Of a stretch of DNA of 11,925 nucleotides, positions 6,529 to 10,952 are shown piece after piece. Position 1 is the stretch's first letter, and each line of letters begins with the position of its first letter. Position numbers and translations under genes: made by a program. The DNA is taken from IMG/VR virus record IMGVR_UViG_2698536443_000025; one strand, 5' to 3'. Under the pieces are notes generated by a model. The model saw only the letters and a list, made by a program, of their open reading frames with translations, was not told the origin of the DNA and ran no database searches. The stretch is from a virus (taxonomy: Duplodnaviria; Heunggongvirae; Uroviricota; Caudoviricetes).

Positions 6529-6538
6529 TCAATAAATA

Positions 6539-6566: not shown

Positions 6567-6914
6567 ATGGCTAAAAATATTTTCACTGAATTTCCTACTT
6601 ATCCGGTTGATCAGCTTTCCGGTATTTTTATTAATGGCATTAGCCCAGAATCTATGACCTATGATTTTGAGGCGAAGAGAGTTAAACATAAACAATATAA
6701 AGAATGTATCCGTGACCATGAAAAGGGGACCGTGTTTTGTGTCGCTACATTGGCTAAACGTCCTAAATATCGTTTTCGTGTAGGGCAAGAAGTCGATGTA
6801 GTTAATCCTTATAGCTTTAACTGTCTGGGTGATGCACGCGCGGTGTGTGTAGGCACTGCTCCTTATTATATCAAGGGTATGCGCTTTATTGGTTATATCT
6901 TCGAAATGATCTAA
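6567..6914 (+). CDS. Hypothetical protein (115 aa)
   Basis: GGGGG Shine-Dalgarno 6 nt before ATG 6567, co-directional operon context, and 9-nt spacing to the next gene. No motif recognised. Confidence 0.7.
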   Translation: MAKNIFTEFPTYPVDQLSGIFINGISPESMTYDFEAKRVKHKQYKECIRDHEKGTVFCVATLAKRPKYRFRVGQEVDVVNPYSFNCLGDARAVCVGTAPYYIKGMRFIGYIFEMI

Positions 6915-6923
6915 GGGGGTAAT

Positions 6924-7277
6924 ATGTTAAGTAAGCATTTTTCTCGCAAGGAATTTAAATGTAAATGCGGAAAATGTGATTATGATACAATCGACGCTGA
7001 ATTACTGGTGATTCTTGAGGATGTACGAGAGCACTTCGGTAAACCAGTGATTATTAACAGTGGGAACCGTTGCCCGACTCATAACAAGAATGTAGGCGGC
7101 GCAACCAATAGCTATCATGTTCGAGGCCGCGCGGCTGACATTGTTATCAAGGGTGTCTCGCCTGATATTGTTCATGCTTATCTTGATGGGAAATATCCTA
7201 CTCAATACGGCTTAGGAAAATATAAAACCTTTACGCATATTGATTCCAGATCAAAAAAATCACGGTGGAATGGATAA
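6924..7277 (+). CDS. Peptidase M15 family zinc metallopeptidase (M15_3/M15A-type cell-wall peptidase, endolysin-like)
   Basis: AAGGGGG Shine-Dalgarno before ATG 6924. Translation has FSRKEFKCKCGKC at the N-terminus and SGNRCPTHNKNVGGATNSYHVRGRAADI...FTHID, the His/Asp/His zinc-ligand pattern of M15-type D-Ala-D-Ala carboxypeptidase-like phage peptidases. Recognised from memory, not searched. Confidence 0.8.
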   Translation: MLSKHFSRKEFKCKCGKCDYDTIDAELLVILEDVREHFGKPVIINSGNRCPTHNKNVGGATNSYHVRGRAADIVIKGVSPDIVHAYLDGKYPTQYGLGKYKTFTHIDSRSKKSRWNG

Positions 7278-7280
7278 AAC

Positions 7281-7308
7281 AAAAGCGCCTCTGGTGGGCG
7301 CTTTTTTG
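7281..7308 (+). terminator. Rho-independent terminator ending the accessory operon
   Basis: Stem AGCGCC (7284-7289) / GGCGCT (7297-7302) with a 7-nt loop, followed by TTTTT (7303-7307), immediately after the TAA at 7275-7277. Confidence 0.8.
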
Positions 7309-7383
7309 TTAGAATATGCTGGCGACGTTAGCTATATTTCTGACTATTTTTTCATTATAGACAAATATACCGCAGAAGATAAA

Positions 7384-7626
7384 GTGGTATTTGATGAAGC
7401 AGATCCGTCACTGGTTGAAGCAATGAAAGAACCGGAACCAGTAGAAGAAACTCCGGTAGTGGAACCTGTCATTGAAGAAGTTCAGCCAGTAGTTGAAGAA
7501 GTACCGGAAGTTAACGCAGAATCTCCGGTAGCCAACATTTTCTCTGACGAAGCAGAGCATCGTTCTCCGGTACATGACACAGAAACATTTTGCGATCTTA
7601 CTGGTTTCCAAAACTACAATAATTAA
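7384..7626 (+). CDS. Acidic Pro/Glu/Val-rich protein (start uncertain: GTG 7384 or ATG 7423)
   Basis: Clear GNN-rich codon periodicity in the frame ending at TAA 7624-7626 (EPEPVEETPVVEPVIEEVQPVVEEVPEV...). The track start at 7240 is unlikely because it would overlap the preceding gene and contain the terminator hairpin. No strong Shine-Dalgarno at either candidate start. Confidence 0.4.
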   Translation: MVFDEADPSLVEAMKEPEPVEETPVVEPVIEEVQPVVEEVPEVNAESPVANIFSDEAEHRSPVHDTETFCDLTGFQNYNN

Positions 7627-7636
7627 TTCTTATAAA

Positions 7637-7673
7637 TAGTAGTGAATATTATTTTATTGAGGATTCACTACTA
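7637..7673 (+). promoter_or_regulatory. 11-bp perfect inverted repeat overlapping the RBS and start codon of the 7673 gene (operator or translational hairpin)
   Basis: TAGTAGTGAAT (7637-7647) and ATTCACTACTA (7663-7673) are exact reverse complements separated by 15 nt. The spacer holds the GAGGA Shine-Dalgarno (7659-7663), and the right arm ends on the A of ATG 7673. Confidence 0.5.
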
Positions 7674-8671
7674 TGAATACTACTTTAGCAAAGGATATCG
7701 AATTTACCGCAAAAAGCAAACGTGCGACCCCTCCGGTCGAATATGAAACCAGAATCATTAAAGTTTGTCAAGTGCATGGATGGTTATACAGTGGTTTTGT
7801 GCTTCCTGTAAAGAAACCATTCCAGAACACCAAAGTTTGCATAGAAGTTAACGGAAAGGTTAAAACGCCATGTATTAGTCATGTTCTAACTGGTCAGTTT
7901 ACTGGCAAAGATAGAGTATCACCGCCTAAGAAGAAGTTTAGATTTACCGAAGAAGAACACTTAGAAAACGCTCGCAAGTTCTACAAGCCGATAGGGTGGG
8001 ATGTGTTAGGTCTGGCTGAACCTTATCAGGGTGTTGACACTAAACTAATTCTTCGTTGTAAGTGCCACGGAAAGATTCACAAGAAAGGTGATTTACACAA
8101 TAACCGCAGACAAGGCGGGTTAACATGCCCTTTGGTTAGGGGGGTACTTAAATCAATTCAGAACGGTAGAAAACAGGTTATCAGAAACAAGTTTGCACAG
8201 CGCCCTATGCACTTTTATCTAATTCGTGTTGGCGAGAAGTTTTTCAAATATGGAATTACCACTCGCAAAGATCCGATGCAACGGGTAAGAGAACACCAGA
8301 AGCACACCAGCGAGAAAATCACCTTTGAATGCTCACATTTGTTTAACATTGGATGGAAAGCTGGTGATTTAGAAATGGGGATTAAAAAGAATATTCAGGG
8401 CAAGAAAATCCCACGTAAGGTAATGAATAGCGGATTCACAGAAACGCTACCGATTAGCAAGCTGAAAGATGTTAAATCATTCATCAATGAATACATCCAC
8501 ACCAACCCATCTAAGCCAATGTATTTTGATGATACCAACGCAATCAATCTGAACAACTACATTAGTGATGAAGACATAGAACGAGATTTATCGCAGTGGA
8601 TGAATGCACCGTTAGCTGATTTAATACCGGAAGACTTAGAACTCGATTTAAGCCCATTAGAGACACTCTAA
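7673..8671 (+). CDS. T5orf172-domain (GIY-YIG superfamily) protein with Cys/His-rich N-terminal region and acidic C-terminal tail
   Basis: 332-aa ORF with GAGGA Shine-Dalgarno. Residues ~185-215 FYLIRVGEKFFKYGITTRKDPMQRVREH fit the T5orf172 signature (...KIGxTTRxPxxR...). The N-terminal ~180 aa carry CQVHG, C...C and CKCHGKIH motifs suggesting zinc binding. The C-terminus is acidic (EDLELDLSPLETL). Confidence 0.75.
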   Translation: MNTTLAKDIEFTAKSKRATPPVEYETRIIKVCQVHGWLYSGFVLPVKKPFQNTKVCIEVNGKVKTPCISHVLTGQFTGKDRVSPPKKKFRFTEEEHLENARKFYKPIGWDVLGLAEPYQGVDTKLILRCKCHGKIHKKGDLHNNRRQGGLTCPLVRGVLKSIQNGRKQVIRNKFAQRPMHFYLIRVGEKFFKYGITTRKDPMQRVREHQKHTSEKITFECSHLFNIGWKAGDLEMGIKKNIQGKKIPRKVMNSGFTETLPISKLKDVKSFINEYIHTNPSKPMYFDDTNAINLNNYISDEDIERDLSQWMNAPLADLIPEDLELDLSPLETL

Positions 8672-8683
8672 CGCAATTAAATT

Positions 8684-8717
8684 AAAAAGGGGTACGAATG
8701 TACCCCTTAACTGTTTT
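8684..8717. terminator. Bidirectional rho-independent terminator between convergent genes
   Basis: Perfect 7-bp stem GGGGTAC (8689-8695) / GTACCCC (8700-8706) with a 4-nt loop. It is flanked by AAAAA upstream (a U-run for the minus-strand transcript) and TTAACTGTTTT downstream (a weaker U-run for the plus strand). Confidence 0.7.
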
Positions 8718-8744
8718 AGCTCGTTATACGTCGATTTAGGCCGC

Positions 8745-10424
8745 TTAAATTCCAAATTCCTGTAATGGACCTGGTATTTCCTCTTCTGGCTTCCAGTCTT
8801 TATCTGTCAGCATGTCTAAACATGGATGCAGAACAAGCCCGTTACTCTCCAGAATCTGCCTATCATTGATAGTTTTCAAATCGACAAAGATTTGTCCTTT
8901 CCTCGGTCCTCTTGAATTTTCTATTACAACTCTCTGGGTCTTGCCATCAATGTATTCCAGTACAAACAAGTTTTTGTATTTGTCAATCCTGCTACACCCG
9001 ATCCGTTTTAGAGCTTGCTTAATCTTAAACCGGACCTTAATGCGATCCTCGTTATAAACATCTTCTAAATCAAATTCTGCGAGCTTCTCCCAGCCTTGAG
9101 AGTCCACAGAATACATTTCCTCTTCTGCCATCTTAATCTGATTATAGAGTGTTTCACGCTCGCTATTGAGGGTAGTAATCTGGTCGGCTAACTCCTTCGT
9201 TGCTCCAGTCATAGCAGAAAGGGTAATCAGGTTATCAATCTTGCGTGATATCTCATCAATCTGTACTTTCAAAGCCGGAACAGGATTAGCCTTATCCTCA
9301 GCAATCCAGATTTTATCAGCCAGCAATTGCAATACAGCTTTCTCTAATTGATCACCTCGAAAACTCCAGTTTGTATGCACACATGCAATACGACTAGAGC
9401 GCATTGCATCGCATGAATAACGATATTGGTTAGGCCGTTTGTTAGTTCCTTTCACCTTAACCATAGCGGAACCGCAATGTTCACATTTCAGCAGATTAAC
9501 ACCACTAAGCAGGGGGATCGGTTTAGCTTCTTCTTTGTCTCCATAGTTACATGCTCTAACACCAATGCTTTTCTTAAGGTGATAAAACTCAGCGTCATCT
9601 AGCACACGAGGGTAATAATCCTTTAACTCATACTTAACGCCATCTACAGAGATTTCCTTGATACCAATCAAAGCGCGGGTATGGAACAACCTTTCAATCA
9701 TTGCCCGTGACCAGTTTGAATGCCTCTTGTGACTTGCGGCTGGTGGTGGTGTGTATGTCGCGTTAAGGTGATCCAGTATCTCGGCGGTTGACCGTCCATT
9801 CCTGCGTAATTCCACAACTTCCTGAACAATAGGGAAGAAGACCGGATGAGGAAGCACATAACCAGATGTGGTATCAGTCCACCACATATTCTTTCCAATT
9901 TCCTCGATTGCAACAGCCGGATTTTGTGGATTTTCTTGATGAGCTTTAATCTTAATCAGTGCGCTTGAGTTAGTACGATTGCGCTTAGTCTGGCTTTCCT
10001 CATTACCACGGATGAATAAAAGGATGGAGAACATCAGGTCCATCGGGTTAGCGGTAACAGTATCAAGCGAGTAGATCTTGTTATCCATGCCAGTAACAAT
10101 GGTTATCCCCCTACGGATGATTGAAAGGAATAACTCCTGCGCACTGACAATATCGGCACGGGATAAACGGTCCAAGTTTTCGATGAATAGCCAGCTACCA
10201 ACAGGAACGGATCTACCTATTGCATCAAGGAAACGAGATAGCGCCCCTGTTTTGGAGTTAGCACCCTTAAACGCAGATACACCCAGATCCTGATAATCAT
10301 TTACCAGTTCAAGGTCATACTTTACCGCAATCTCTCTAGCCATCCTGATTTGTCGTTCATAACTCGAACCATCATTCTGACGCATAGACGAGAAGCGAAT
10401 ATACGAATACAGTTTAGTTTTCAT
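8745..10424 (-). CDS. Large serine recombinase (putative serine integrase)
   Basis: The N-terminal resolvase-type catalytic domain has YIRFSSMRQ (catalytic Ser) and ENLDRLSR. It is followed by a recombinase domain, a zinc ribbon (CEHCGS...YRYSC...AC) and a coiled-coil region. Start taken at ATG 10424-10422 (MKTKLYSYIRFSS); the track ORF starts at an in-frame TTG at 10439. Confidence 0.9.
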   Translation of the reverse strand: MKTKLYSYIRFSSMRQNDGSSYERQIRMAREIAVKYDLELVNDYQDLGVSAFKGANSKTGALSRFLDAIGRSVPVGSWLFIENLDRLSRADIVSAQELFLSIIRRGITIVTGMDNKIYSLDTVTANPMDLMFSILLFIRGNEESQTKRNRTNSSALIKIKAHQENPQNPAVAIEEIGKNMWWTDTTSGYVLPHPVFFPIVQEVVELRRNGRSTAEILDHLNATYTPPPAASHKRHSNWSRAMIERLFHTRALIGIKEISVDGVKYELKDYYPRVLDDAEFYHLKKSIGVRACNYGDKEEAKPIPLLSGVNLLKCEHCGSAMVKVKGTNKRPNQYRYSCDAMRSSRIACVHTNWSFRGDQLEKAVLQLLADKIWIAEDKANPVPALKVQIDEISRKIDNLITLSAMTGATKELADQITTLNSERETLYNQIKMAEEEMYSVDSQGWEKLAEFDLEDVYNEDRIKVRFKIKQALKRIGCSRIDKYKNLFVLEYIDGKTQRVVIENSRGPRKGQIFVDLKTINDRQILESNGLVLHPCLDMLTDKDWKPEEEIPGPLQEFGI

Positions 10425-10442
10425 ACCATTTCCAAACAAAAA

Positions 10443-10487: not shown

Positions 10488-10907
10488 TTAAAGAATTTCA
10501 CGGCAGCTAATCAGGGAATAAGACGTATCACCTTTTTTAACATCAAATATAGGCGCGCCATCTACAGAATGCAGATATTTGATGTAGGATTTACCATCTT
10601 CGGAACCATAATATTCTTCTTTCTCGTTCTTATCTTCTTTCAGTTTTGGGCTTTTGATTGTTTTATCAAATACCGGATCGTTGAAAGCAAATTGACTATT
10701 ATCATCATTCACTCGAACCTTTACACCGATAAAACCACGGTATTTGCCAGACGGCGCATGATAATAACGGTCGCCATCACTCAGGTAGCGTGTATCATCT
10801 CCTTTATATTCGAAGTAGGAATTGCACACATAATAGGTATAGGTATTAGCATTCGCAGCACCAACCAAACCCAGAGCAAGAACAACACCAGCGATAATCT
10901 TTTTCAT
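10488..10907 (-). CDS. Secreted (signal-peptide) protein, 139 aa, function unknown
   Basis: AGAGGAA Shine-Dalgarno 8 nt before the ATG. N-terminus MKKIIAGVVLALGLVGAANA is a typical Sec signal peptide with an A-N-A cleavage motif and no lipobox cysteine. The mature part is Tyr/Asp/Lys-rich with two Cys. Confidence 0.75.
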   Translation of the reverse strand: MKKIIAGVVLALGLVGAANANTYTYYVCNSYFEYKGDDTRYLSDGDRYYHAPSGKYRGFIGVKVRVNDDNSQFAFNDPVFDKTIKSPKLKEDKNEKEEYYGSEDGKSYIKYLHSVDGAPIFDVKKGDTSYSLISCREIL

Positions 10908-10952
10908 AGTAGAATTTCCTCTTGTTGTTTGAATTACGATATATTTATATCA

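Follow-up and report, generated by a model that had tools for sequence, protein, structure and literature searches.

The window analysed here, an 11,925-nucleotide (nt) stretch of Caudoviricetes DNA from IMG/VR record IMGVR_UViG_2698536443_000025, is the right end of an Escherichia coli prophage and holds, in a cargo slot between the lysis genes and the integrase gene of an uncharacterised temperate phage, two open reading frames (ORFs): a short acidic ORF rich in Pro, Glu and Val and, directly downstream of it, a gene for a 332-amino-acid (aa) protein. An earlier note made from the sequence alone had described both ORFs, and both are present with the coordinates, motif and composition that it gave. 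We consider it probable, at roughly 60%, that the pair represents a selfish, or possibly weaponised, free-standing homing endonuclease gene (HEG) cassette of the type known from T4-like phages, placed in the cargo slot of a temperate phage, and that the acidic ORF is a recombining relic of inh, a head gene of Krischvirus phages.

The 332-aa protein has an isoelectric point (pI) of 9.6. Cys and His residues are scattered over its N-terminal half, aa 181-208 form the motif FYLIRVGEKFFKYGITTRKDPMQRVREH, and its C-terminal tail is acidic, with 11 Asp plus Glu in the last 42 aa. Homologues of the gene that are 36-99% identical were found in prophages of E. coli, Salmonella and Proteus, and the ratio of nonsynonymous to synonymous substitution rates (dN/dS) is 0.09-0.15; with such homologues and a ratio of about 0.1, the ORF is not a chance one. 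PHROG 681, annotated as 'endonuclease', covers aa 87-292 (E=4e-20), while the only Pfam signal is a sub-threshold one to CapR (16 bits versus a cut-off of 24.2); no Pfam GIY-YIG family and no NCBIfam model matched. The PADLOC model PD-Lambda-1 aligned to only 22-44 aa around the GIY motif (E 0.005-0.007, 13-14 bits), not along its full length. A tblastn search of 50,697 phage records identified T5.141 ('endonuclease'; 27% identity over aa 88-278), a 361-aa ORF of Krischvirus JK32 (35% identity, aa 152-287) and further phage ORFs that carry an endonuclease annotation. With a profile built from 18 close homologues, at least 2000 relatives were found at E<=0.001 and 470 at E<=1e-10, among which the number of N-terminal repeats varies; in the relatives that were sampled, matches to CapR, DUF723, DUF4379 and MUG113 attain the Pfam cut-off and those to T5orf172 narrowly miss it, and the relatives that tie the protein to MUG113 do so at profile E-values of 1e-17 to 1e-60. 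An hhalign comparison with a bona fide T5orf172 protein of a sister locus was colinear (E=7.5e-4). These comparisons place the gene, which is conserved and under purifying selection, in the CapR/T5orf172 homing-endonuclease family, and its product appears to be a divergent member whose T5orf172 membership is transitive, through its relatives. The T5orf172/GIY-YIG label of the earlier note is thereby confirmed indirectly, by PHROG 681 and the family profile, with no direct Pfam hit, and the zinc-finger-like N-terminal region that it saw finds some support in the sub-threshold CapR match and in the relatives above the CapR cut-off.

An AlphaFold model of the protein (pLDDT 80) consists of two modules of a helix plus three strands, an alpha/beta domain and a disordered tail, and we place the CapR-like modules at about aa 20-75 and 93-155, the GIY-YIG/T5orf172-like domain at about aa 178-278 and the tail at aa 291-332. 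The putative catalytic domain is predicted to adopt the GIY-YIG alpha/beta fold. A Foldseek search of the BFVD viral models with this structure gave 111 matches at E<=0.001; the named ones are mostly CapR-homology, zinc-ribbon, GIY-YIG, T5 Orf172 or homing endonuclease proteins, and all those listed are phage proteins, while a profile search of PDB sequences found no match. Y182, K192, G194, R204 and E234 do not vary across 136 relatives with 17-58% identity, and conservation is at least 90% at E257 and T258; the conserved residues of catalytic type comprise the Tyr of the first motif, the Gly of the second, an Arg and Glu. The loss of catalytic residues that the earlier note had named as a refutation was therefore not seen. 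The alternative raised in the earlier note, a Bro/KilA-type regulator, found no backing, as no Bro-N, KilA-N or antirepressor domain was detected in the protein (Pfam, E<=0.1).

The tail of the protein (8543-8668) ends in ...EDLELDLSPLETL, and its E-L-D-L-x-P-L core is still present in the homologues from Salmonella and Proteus, where the DNA has diverged; it has the look of a short linear motif that a partner protein might bind. Conservation of the tail as an independent sign of selection was considered and partly rejected, given that the nucleotide conservation among E. coli loci reflects a recombination boundary. The tail may resemble the hydrophobic-acidic C-terminal clamp-binding tails of T4 gp33, gp55 and gp43; the C-terminus of Krischvirus gp33 reads ...NTLDI.

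The acidic ORF is, on nucleotide-level homology, an internal relic of the T4-like head gene inh and no separate gene. Its frame spans 7240 to 7626 and holds the GTG at 7384 and the string EPEPVEETPVVEPVIEEVQPVVEEVPEV; read from this GTG, it would encode 80 aa with 21 Asp plus Glu versus 2 Lys plus Arg and a pI of about 4.05. When positions 6900-8750 were compared with phage genomes by megablast, only 7367-7609 matched, and every match lay inside the inh gene of a Krischvirus phage (JSE, SSG23, GEC-3S, JK32 and others; 78-83% nt identity); blastn of the fragment against inh of JSE, SSG23 and JK32 gave 79-82%. In Krischvirus, inh is annotated as 'minor head protein inhibitor of prohead protease'. 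A literature search on the biochemistry of Inh found nothing, and its function is taken here from GenBank annotation and general background. The fragment corresponds in frame to codons 84-169 of the 241-codon, 726-bp gene of JSE and encodes ...TAEDKVVFDEADPSLVEAMKEPEP...SPVANIFSDEAEHRSPVHDTETFCDLTGF, the JSE counterpart being ...TADDKIVFDEVDPSLVEAMKEPEI...SPVANIFSDEAEHRSLAHDTDSFCDLTGF. Both junctions of the homology are sharp, with the left one at ACCGCAGA (7369) and the right one at ...GGTTTCC (7609), past which the prophage reads AAAACTACAATAATTAA versus GTCCGACC in the phage; the only part of the ORF not derived from inh is its last five codons (QNYNN).

While a full-length Inh has about 226-241 aa and comprises Phage_Inh_N and a C-terminal region, only aa 84-169 are present here: 83 codons at the 5' end and 72 at the 3' end are missing, as are the start codon and the promoter of inh, so that the ORF is a fragment and functionally no member of the Inh family. 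Direct reading of the sequence found no Shine-Dalgarno (SD) sequence ahead of GTG 7384 or ATG 7423; at ATG 7270, a GGTGGA is spaced from the start by only about 1 nt and a terminator hairpin comes next, inside the ORF, so that the longest versions of the ORF (start 7240 or 7270) contain the hairpin at 7281-7305. Judging by these features, the relic is most likely not translated. No match to the ORF was found in Pfam, PHROGs, NCBIfam or PADLOC. The ORF is open because it is a piece of real coding sequence and not a chance frame, and it is acidic because it derives from the acidic linker of Inh, a homology that explains its composition fully. This linker is polymorphic in the phages themselves (JSE type versus MIZ6/G2248 type), and the MIZ6/G2248 type is present in other prophage copies. 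The dN/dS of the window's fragment against phage alleles is 0.23-0.34, as expected had it diverged under coding constraint, as a working gene of a phage and not as a decaying relic; the allele type of the window itself is absent from sequenced phages.

Many sister prophages were recovered by protein and DNA searches, and their inh pieces differ in extent and in origin. Left ends lie at about Inh aa 12, 44-49 or 84 and right ends at aa 169, 186 or 197; some copies have internal deletions (P0038, P0039), and frameshifts near the 3' end were seen in P0042 and P0044. Over the sister prophages, the inh alleles range from 78 to 99% identity to JSE. Identity between the window and eight loci of the same architecture is 93.5-100% for the endolysin gene, 93-100% for the spacer and 99-100% for the nuclease gene, while the inh patch is only 78-82% identical to that of five of the eight, which defines two allele groups. 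The inh alleles of these five loci are 94-98% identical to JSE or SSG23, with the polymorphisms of locus L005 tracking JSE and those of L014 tracking SSG23, in other prophages the patches are 95-99% identical to JSE or SSG23, and the longer ones of L018 and L019 are 99.0% and 98.6% identical to JSE over 415 bp. We conclude from this pattern that the inh patch has apparently been replaced repeatedly through recombination with different Krischvirus-like phages.

The same relation to one phage region is seen with other genes. In Krischvirus the local order is uvsW.1 and uvsW on one strand, followed on the other strand by inh, (Hoc-like) and hoc. Upstream of the nuclease gene, E. coli and Proteus prophages carry an inh fragment, L023 (nuclease allele P0008) a hoc fragment (aa 194-324), and L024 (allele P0013) a piece of an 847-aa Hoc-like gene plus a small inh piece; a complete uvsW is found in this position with uvsW.1 in L021 and L022 and without it in the Salmonella loci L011 and L012. 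L021 is a mosaic as well, since its uvsW.1 is 98-99% identical to JSE at the nucleotide level and the adjacent uvsW 65-73%. The JK32 relative of the nuclease (L006, 5169-6254) is inserted between uvsW and uvsW.1 and is absent from JSE and SSG23, and the same neighbourhood is therefore an insertion site for this nuclease family in virulent phages. The right-hand boundary of cassette exchange lies at the 3' end of the nuclease ORF, where 8592-8671 is about 86-91% identical among the compared E. coli loci despite nucleases that are only 36-58% identical at the protein level; the last ~80 nt of the ORF together with all DNA downstream are 86-100% identical among these loci. By the comparisons above, this locus exchanges DNA with Krischvirus.

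Several further observations concern the sister loci. UvsW of Salmonella and some E. coli prophages (L011/L012 1772-3277 and L021 2786-4285, all minus strand) is 71-73% identical at the protein level to that of Krischvirus, and uvsW.1 of L021 and L022 is 97-100% identical at that level to that of JSE; a T4-type recombination helicase gene in a temperate phage is unusual. Some sisters have a second, short nuclease gene of 188-198 aa on the opposite strand, between the endolysin gene and the phage-gene fragment (L004 3410-3991, L009 2878-3474, L023 2866-3450, L011 3280-3846 and L021 4276-4845, all minus strand), and in those loci the phage fragment is flanked by two nuclease genes as a miniature 'HEG island'. 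All three short nucleases that were scanned exceed the Pfam T5orf172 threshold and two also that of CapR; no close homologue was found among sequenced phages. Finally, an acidic mini-ORF of 52 aa (MANEFDSIELDFLDTSDYGTGFNINDLITAADSLDGKFTFDEPNQELLAMMQ) in L027 (4684-4960) and L024 (3172-3330) resembles the middle of Inh and is known from five protein clusters, all from E. coli; in L027 it has its own TATAAATA box, SD sequence and terminator and a hairpin with changed but complementary arms (taggtgaat/attcaccta), and it could be an expressed Inh-like peptide.

The region between the inh relic and the nuclease gene resembles the control regions of T4 HEGs. It contains an octamer, TATAAATA, that is identical to the T4-type late-promoter consensus; among 50 T4 late promoters, 32 have the perfect TATAAATA and nine have A at -13 (PMC2988020). 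The box overlaps the 5' arm of a predicted RNA hairpin that encloses the SD sequence GAGG (7659-7662) and whose 3' arm takes in, at its end, the first two AUG bases, which are thereby paired; the calculated folding energy is -15.2 kcal/mol (z -3.8), as compared to only -2.9 kcal/mol for an RNA that starts at 7645. In T4, the genes for I-TevI, for I-TevII and for I-TevIII as well as segB and mobE have a late promoter that gives transcripts without the 5' arm of a hairpin sequestering the ribosome-binding site (RBS) (PMC2988022), and the placement of box and hairpin in the window appears to follow this design. Across 11 distinct loci with unrelated upstream flanks (inh, hoc, Hoc-like or uvsW side), TAAATA and the TAGTGA that follows are invariant, and the full octamer is TATAAATA or AATAAATA in 10 of the 11. 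All four WATAAATA sites in 8 kb of JSE lie just upstream of genes, with AATAAATA located 46 nt before inh. No sigma-70 promoter scoring above 9/12 was found upstream of the nuclease gene; the sole 9/12 match (7358-7385) was rejected as a promoter for this gene, as it lies in a part that is not conserved among the loci, though a weak promoter is possible. A search of the window against Rfam gave no match.

Two other boxes of this type occur in the window. One, AATAAATA at 6531-6538 on the plus strand, lies within the late operon, 28 nt upstream of a 115-aa ORF (6567-6914). The other, a second TATAAATA at 10942-10949 on the minus strand, lies 34 nt upstream of a 139-aa gene (10488-10907, minus strand) whose RBS context (aagaggaaattctactATG) is similar to the one at the nuclease gene but unlike the GGGGG-type RBS of the backbone genes; this gene, which has a signal peptide, may be a second cargo gene with the same style of control.

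From these features we infer how an HEG cassette of this kind would work, including the activity and target of the nuclease, the use of the promoter, and the direction and mechanism of the exchange with phages. The two CapR-type DNA-binding modules, which are partly degenerate zinc fingers, would recognise the site, and the C-terminal GIY-YIG/T5orf172-like domain would cut the DNA, with the uvsW.1-uvsW-inh-hoc region of Krischvirus (RB49/JSE-like) phages as the likely target. The inh relic would be flanking DNA that was carried along with the nuclease gene or recombined next to it, and it would keep recombining with infecting Krischvirus genomes, such that the allele shifts and the nuclease stays constant. 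Expression may be T4-like: read-through RNA would fold into the hairpin and hide the RBS, and a transcript begun a few bases past the TATAAATA box would lack the 5' arm and be translatable.

A number of results weigh against this interpretation. The 332-aa protein itself has no Pfam T5orf172 or MUG113 match at E<=0.1, and, although C129 and C152 are conserved, a Cys of the family's second module is replaced by V155. The nuclease gene is absent from all 50,697 phage records (no DNA match by blastn), in which the best protein identity is 35% and covers the C-terminal part only (tblastn); a T4-like donor is thus hypothetical and homing into phages unobserved. Looking elsewhere for a T4-like phage with the nuclease gave no candidate: a search of IMG/VR yielded only the same prophage family and the JGI metagenomes a single prophage-type locus, and no nuclease locus was found in GTDB representative genomes or in plasmids. 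Since Krischvirus homology exists on one side only of the nuclease gene, classical two-armed homing from the prophage locus is impossible. With regard to the control region, the potential to form the hairpin is retained in related loci, and covariation is not significant with sequences this few and this similar. The box may not be T4-specific because WATAAATA also precedes other prophage genes, including the gene beyond the integrase in related loci, and it may instead be a general promoter element of the prophage or a weak sigma-70 -10 element. Finally, strong purifying selection over deep divergence in prophages fits a benefit to host or prophage at least equally well; together with the absence of the gene from sequenced phages and the one-sided phage homology, its good conservation in prophages argues against pure selfishness.

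We nevertheless rank a selfish cassette as the best explanation; its main rival, which is not exclusive of it, is that the nuclease is a prophage weapon against Krischvirus (i.e., superinfection exclusion) and not merely selfish, a possibility that we entertain at clearly lower odds. Such a gene would be translationally silent in the lysogen until gp55, gp33 and gp45 of an infecting T4-like phage with cytosine DNA read the TATAAATA box; the nuclease would then cut the uvsW-hoc region, and in cells that survive, recombination with the cut phage DNA would leave the variable phage fragments behind as scars. More broadly, a whole family of temperate enterobacterial prophages might have T5orf172 nucleases wired to the late transcription of superinfecting Krischvirus, locked by a hairpin, unlocked only once the invader's gp55/gp33/gp45 begin a transcript within that hairpin, and cutting uvsW-inh-hoc, with the fragments as a record of encounters, a proposal that we regard as equally tentative. 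The position of the gene, which is of the moron or defence type and bracketed by terminators, is consistent with these ideas, as are the lack of an upstream sigma-70 promoter above 9/12, the conserved late-promoter-like box directly against an RBS-occluding hairpin, and the purifying selection on a gene that is kept in prophages of E. coli, Salmonella and Proteus and is intact even where IS1 disrupts the tail gene. Moreover, the gene is restricted to prophages and its neighbouring fragments are refreshed from phages at 98-99% identity, which implies that these lineages survived contact with Krischvirus DNA, and there is precedent for T5orf172 nucleases as weapons (Odn; PMC10448857). Against such a weapon, the PADLOC PD-Lambda-1 match is marginal (E ~0.005 over 22-44 aa), the same type of box stands ahead of other prophage genes, that Krischvirus would use late promoters on a chromosome is an assumption taken over from what is generally known of T4, and conversion of the prophage copy could equally occur during co-replication with an induced temperate phage.

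The remaining explanations assign another role to one of the two ORFs, and we consider each of them improbable. Unlikely, first, is that the 332-aa protein does not cut DNA and has been domesticated as a DNA-binding regulator, as with PLE CapR, or that it serves the neighbouring serine integrase as recombination directionality factor. It has CapR-like DNA-binding modules, its gene is always adjacent to and convergent with the integrase gene, and I-TevI, too, represses itself from its late promoter (PMC2988022), yet the full GIY-YIG-like domain is kept with Tyr, Arg and Glu invariant, while CapR resembles only the N-terminal DNA-binding part of these proteins (PMC8096241). A role as directionality factor was rejected, as L021, L023 and L024 match the window at about 90-100% nt identity over the aligned 3' end of the integrase gene but have nucleases of just 36-58% identity, whereas a factor specific to the integrase should have co-evolved with it. 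Slightly less probable still is a functional acidic Inh fragment, either as a truncated decoy that binds, or is cut by, the prohead protease (gp21 homologue) of infecting Krischvirus and disturbs head maturation, or as a modulator of the nuclease. The frame is open in most copies, the fragment ends are conserved, and the fragment holds L-x-E-type motifs such as LVE|A, which we take to resemble T4 prohead protease cleavage sites; also, the 52-aa mini-ORF of L024 and L027, with its own TATAAATA box, hairpin, SD sequence and terminator, suggests that expressed Inh-like peptides may exist. The window's fragment, by contrast, is without the inh promoter, a terminator stands upstream of it, and none of its possible start codons has a usable RBS; its ends vary among copies, some of which have internal deletions (P0038, P0039) or frameshifts (P0042, P0044), and a short piece of real coding sequence trivially stays open. 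As other nuclease alleles carry pieces of hoc or uvsW, what is conserved is a flank from this phage region and not an Inh peptide. Least probable is the proposal of the earlier note that the acidic ORF is a DNA mimic, an inhibitor or an anti-restriction partner (Ocr/ArdA-like), which would make the two genes a toxin/antidote or defence module. It was founded on composition (pI ~4; 80 aa, 21 of them acidic) and on the position beside the nuclease gene; homology to the acidic Inh linker accounts for the composition in full, no Pfam, PHROGs, NCBIfam or PADLOC model matched, and Salmonella and other E. coli loci have the nuclease without any inh fragment. An internal inh fragment with variable ends and no credible RBS or start codon has to be set aside as a candidate for such a partner.

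Putative T5orf172 homing endonucleases with CapR-type zinc fingers have been described previously, with T5 Orf141 named as a relative (Netter 2021, PMC8096241; Barth 2023, PMC10448857), and those with CapR/DUF723 repeats sit at boundaries of genetic exchange between phages (PMC10448857, PMC8096241); the latter study makes no mention of prophages or temperate phages (Barth 2023, PMC10448857). Like ICP1 Gp165, Gp130 and Gp174 and T5 Orf141, which belong to the family with CapR/DUF723/DUF4379 zinc-finger repeats, the protein of the window is predicted to have repeated helix-plus-beta DNA-binding modules at its N-terminus and a T5orf172/MUG113-type GIY-YIG-like domain at its C-terminus, and like theirs its gene stands at a boundary of exchange between phages. 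Unlike these relatives, it is found in a temperate prophage, stays below the Pfam T5orf172 and CapR thresholds, has one zinc ligand replaced by V155 and a conserved acidic C-terminal tail, and its gene lies beside relics of genes that come from another, virulent phage family. T4 segE, which is inserted between inh and uvsW and whose product cuts uvsW (PMC2988022, Edgell 2010), offers a second parallel: with SegE, I-TevI, segB and mobE the locus shares the inh/uvsW/hoc neighbourhood, a GIY-YIG-type fold and a late-promoter-like box with an RBS hairpin, whereas it differs from the T4 GIY-YIG enzymes in that the catalytic domain is C-terminal and not N-terminal, the DNA-binding modules are others, the protein has no match to a Pfam GIY-YIG family, and the genome is not T4-like. 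The relic is homologous to aa 84-169 of the Inh of Krischvirus and T4-like phages (Pfam Phage_Inh_N, PF26097), in frame and with up to 99% nt identity in sister prophages, and departs from Inh as a fragment that lacks the N-terminal domain, the C-terminal 72 aa, the promoter and the start codon and is located in a prophage. PLE CapR and ICP1 Odn are comparable as homing-endonuclease-derived domains on an integrated element that meets a virulent phage, with recent exchange at the nucleotide level; here, unlike in PLE CapR, the protein keeps its nuclease domain, and a full temperate phage takes the place of the satellite.

The protein family and the fact that such nucleases mark boundaries of phage-phage exchange are thus already published. 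New here are the location in a temperate prophage, the T4-style control region at that location, and the patchwork of near-identical Krischvirus fragments beside a nuclease that has not been seen in sequenced phages. The locus provides a concrete place to ask how much DNA flows between strictly virulent T4-like phages and temperate phages, and it bears on whether enterobacterial phages use homing endonucleases as inter-phage weapons, as in ICP1-PLE; if true, the proposal of nucleases wired to late transcription would make it a phage-activated, sequence-specific inter-phage weapon and also a route by which DNA passes between virulent and temperate phages. For annotation, the short acidic 'hypothetical proteins' that E. 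coli genomes show at this place are pieces of a phage head gene and not candidates for anti-restriction proteins.

The features of the window are collected in Table 1. In the prophage, an IS1 copy is followed by a DUF6950 gene, a gene for a 1258-aa GpJ-like tail-tip protein, four small ORFs and the Peptidase_M15 endolysin gene, which is the final backbone gene ahead of the variable cargo slot; the two terminator-like hairpins bracket the acidic ORF and the 332-aa gene, and further small genes follow beyond the integrase gene.

Table 1. Positions of the features discussed, in coordinates of the window
Feature	Position	Strand	Basis or remark
IS1 copy	1 to ~770		InsA 1-276, InsB-frame 195-698; abuts truncated tail/baseplate-hub ORF 734-1027
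Peptidase M15 endolysin	6924..7277	+	Pfam Peptidase_M15_3, E=1e-27; PHROG 894 endolysin; syntenic across related loci
Bidirectional terminator-like hairpin	7281..7305	.	terminator scan and sequence reading; directly 3' of endolysin
Krischvirus inh fragment	7369..7609	+	241 bp; codons 84-169 of the JSE gene, in frame
Acidic Pro/Glu/Val-rich ORF	7384..7626	+	GTG 7384 to TAA 7624-7626
TATAAATA box	7631..7638	+	identical to T4-type late-promoter consensus; 34 nt upstream of ATG
RNA hairpin, 12-bp stem	7636..7674	+	arms 7636-7647 and 7663-7674
332-aa homing-endonuclease-type protein	7673..8671	+	PHROG, profile, structure-model and conservation evidence
3' end of nuclease ORF (acidic tail)	8592..8671	+	right-hand cassette-exchange boundary; windowed identities
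Bidirectional terminator hairpin	8687..8708	.	terminator scan; separates nuclease gene from convergent integrase gene
Large serine recombinase, prophage integrase	8745..10439	-	Pfam Resolvase, Recombinase, Zn_ribbon_recom; PHROG 95 integrase; right edge of slot

Nothing similar to the backbone of this prophage was found among the isolated phages of the INPHARED collection. The same arrangement is present in 56 of 5426 complete E. coli genomes (~1%), in a chromosomal location every time, and host genes adjoining these prophages include hicB/ydcR and ycdY. In the sister genome L003, the tail/baseplate-hub gene that IS1 interrupts in the window is intact, with a length of 654 nt, and the prophage of the window is therefore probably defective.

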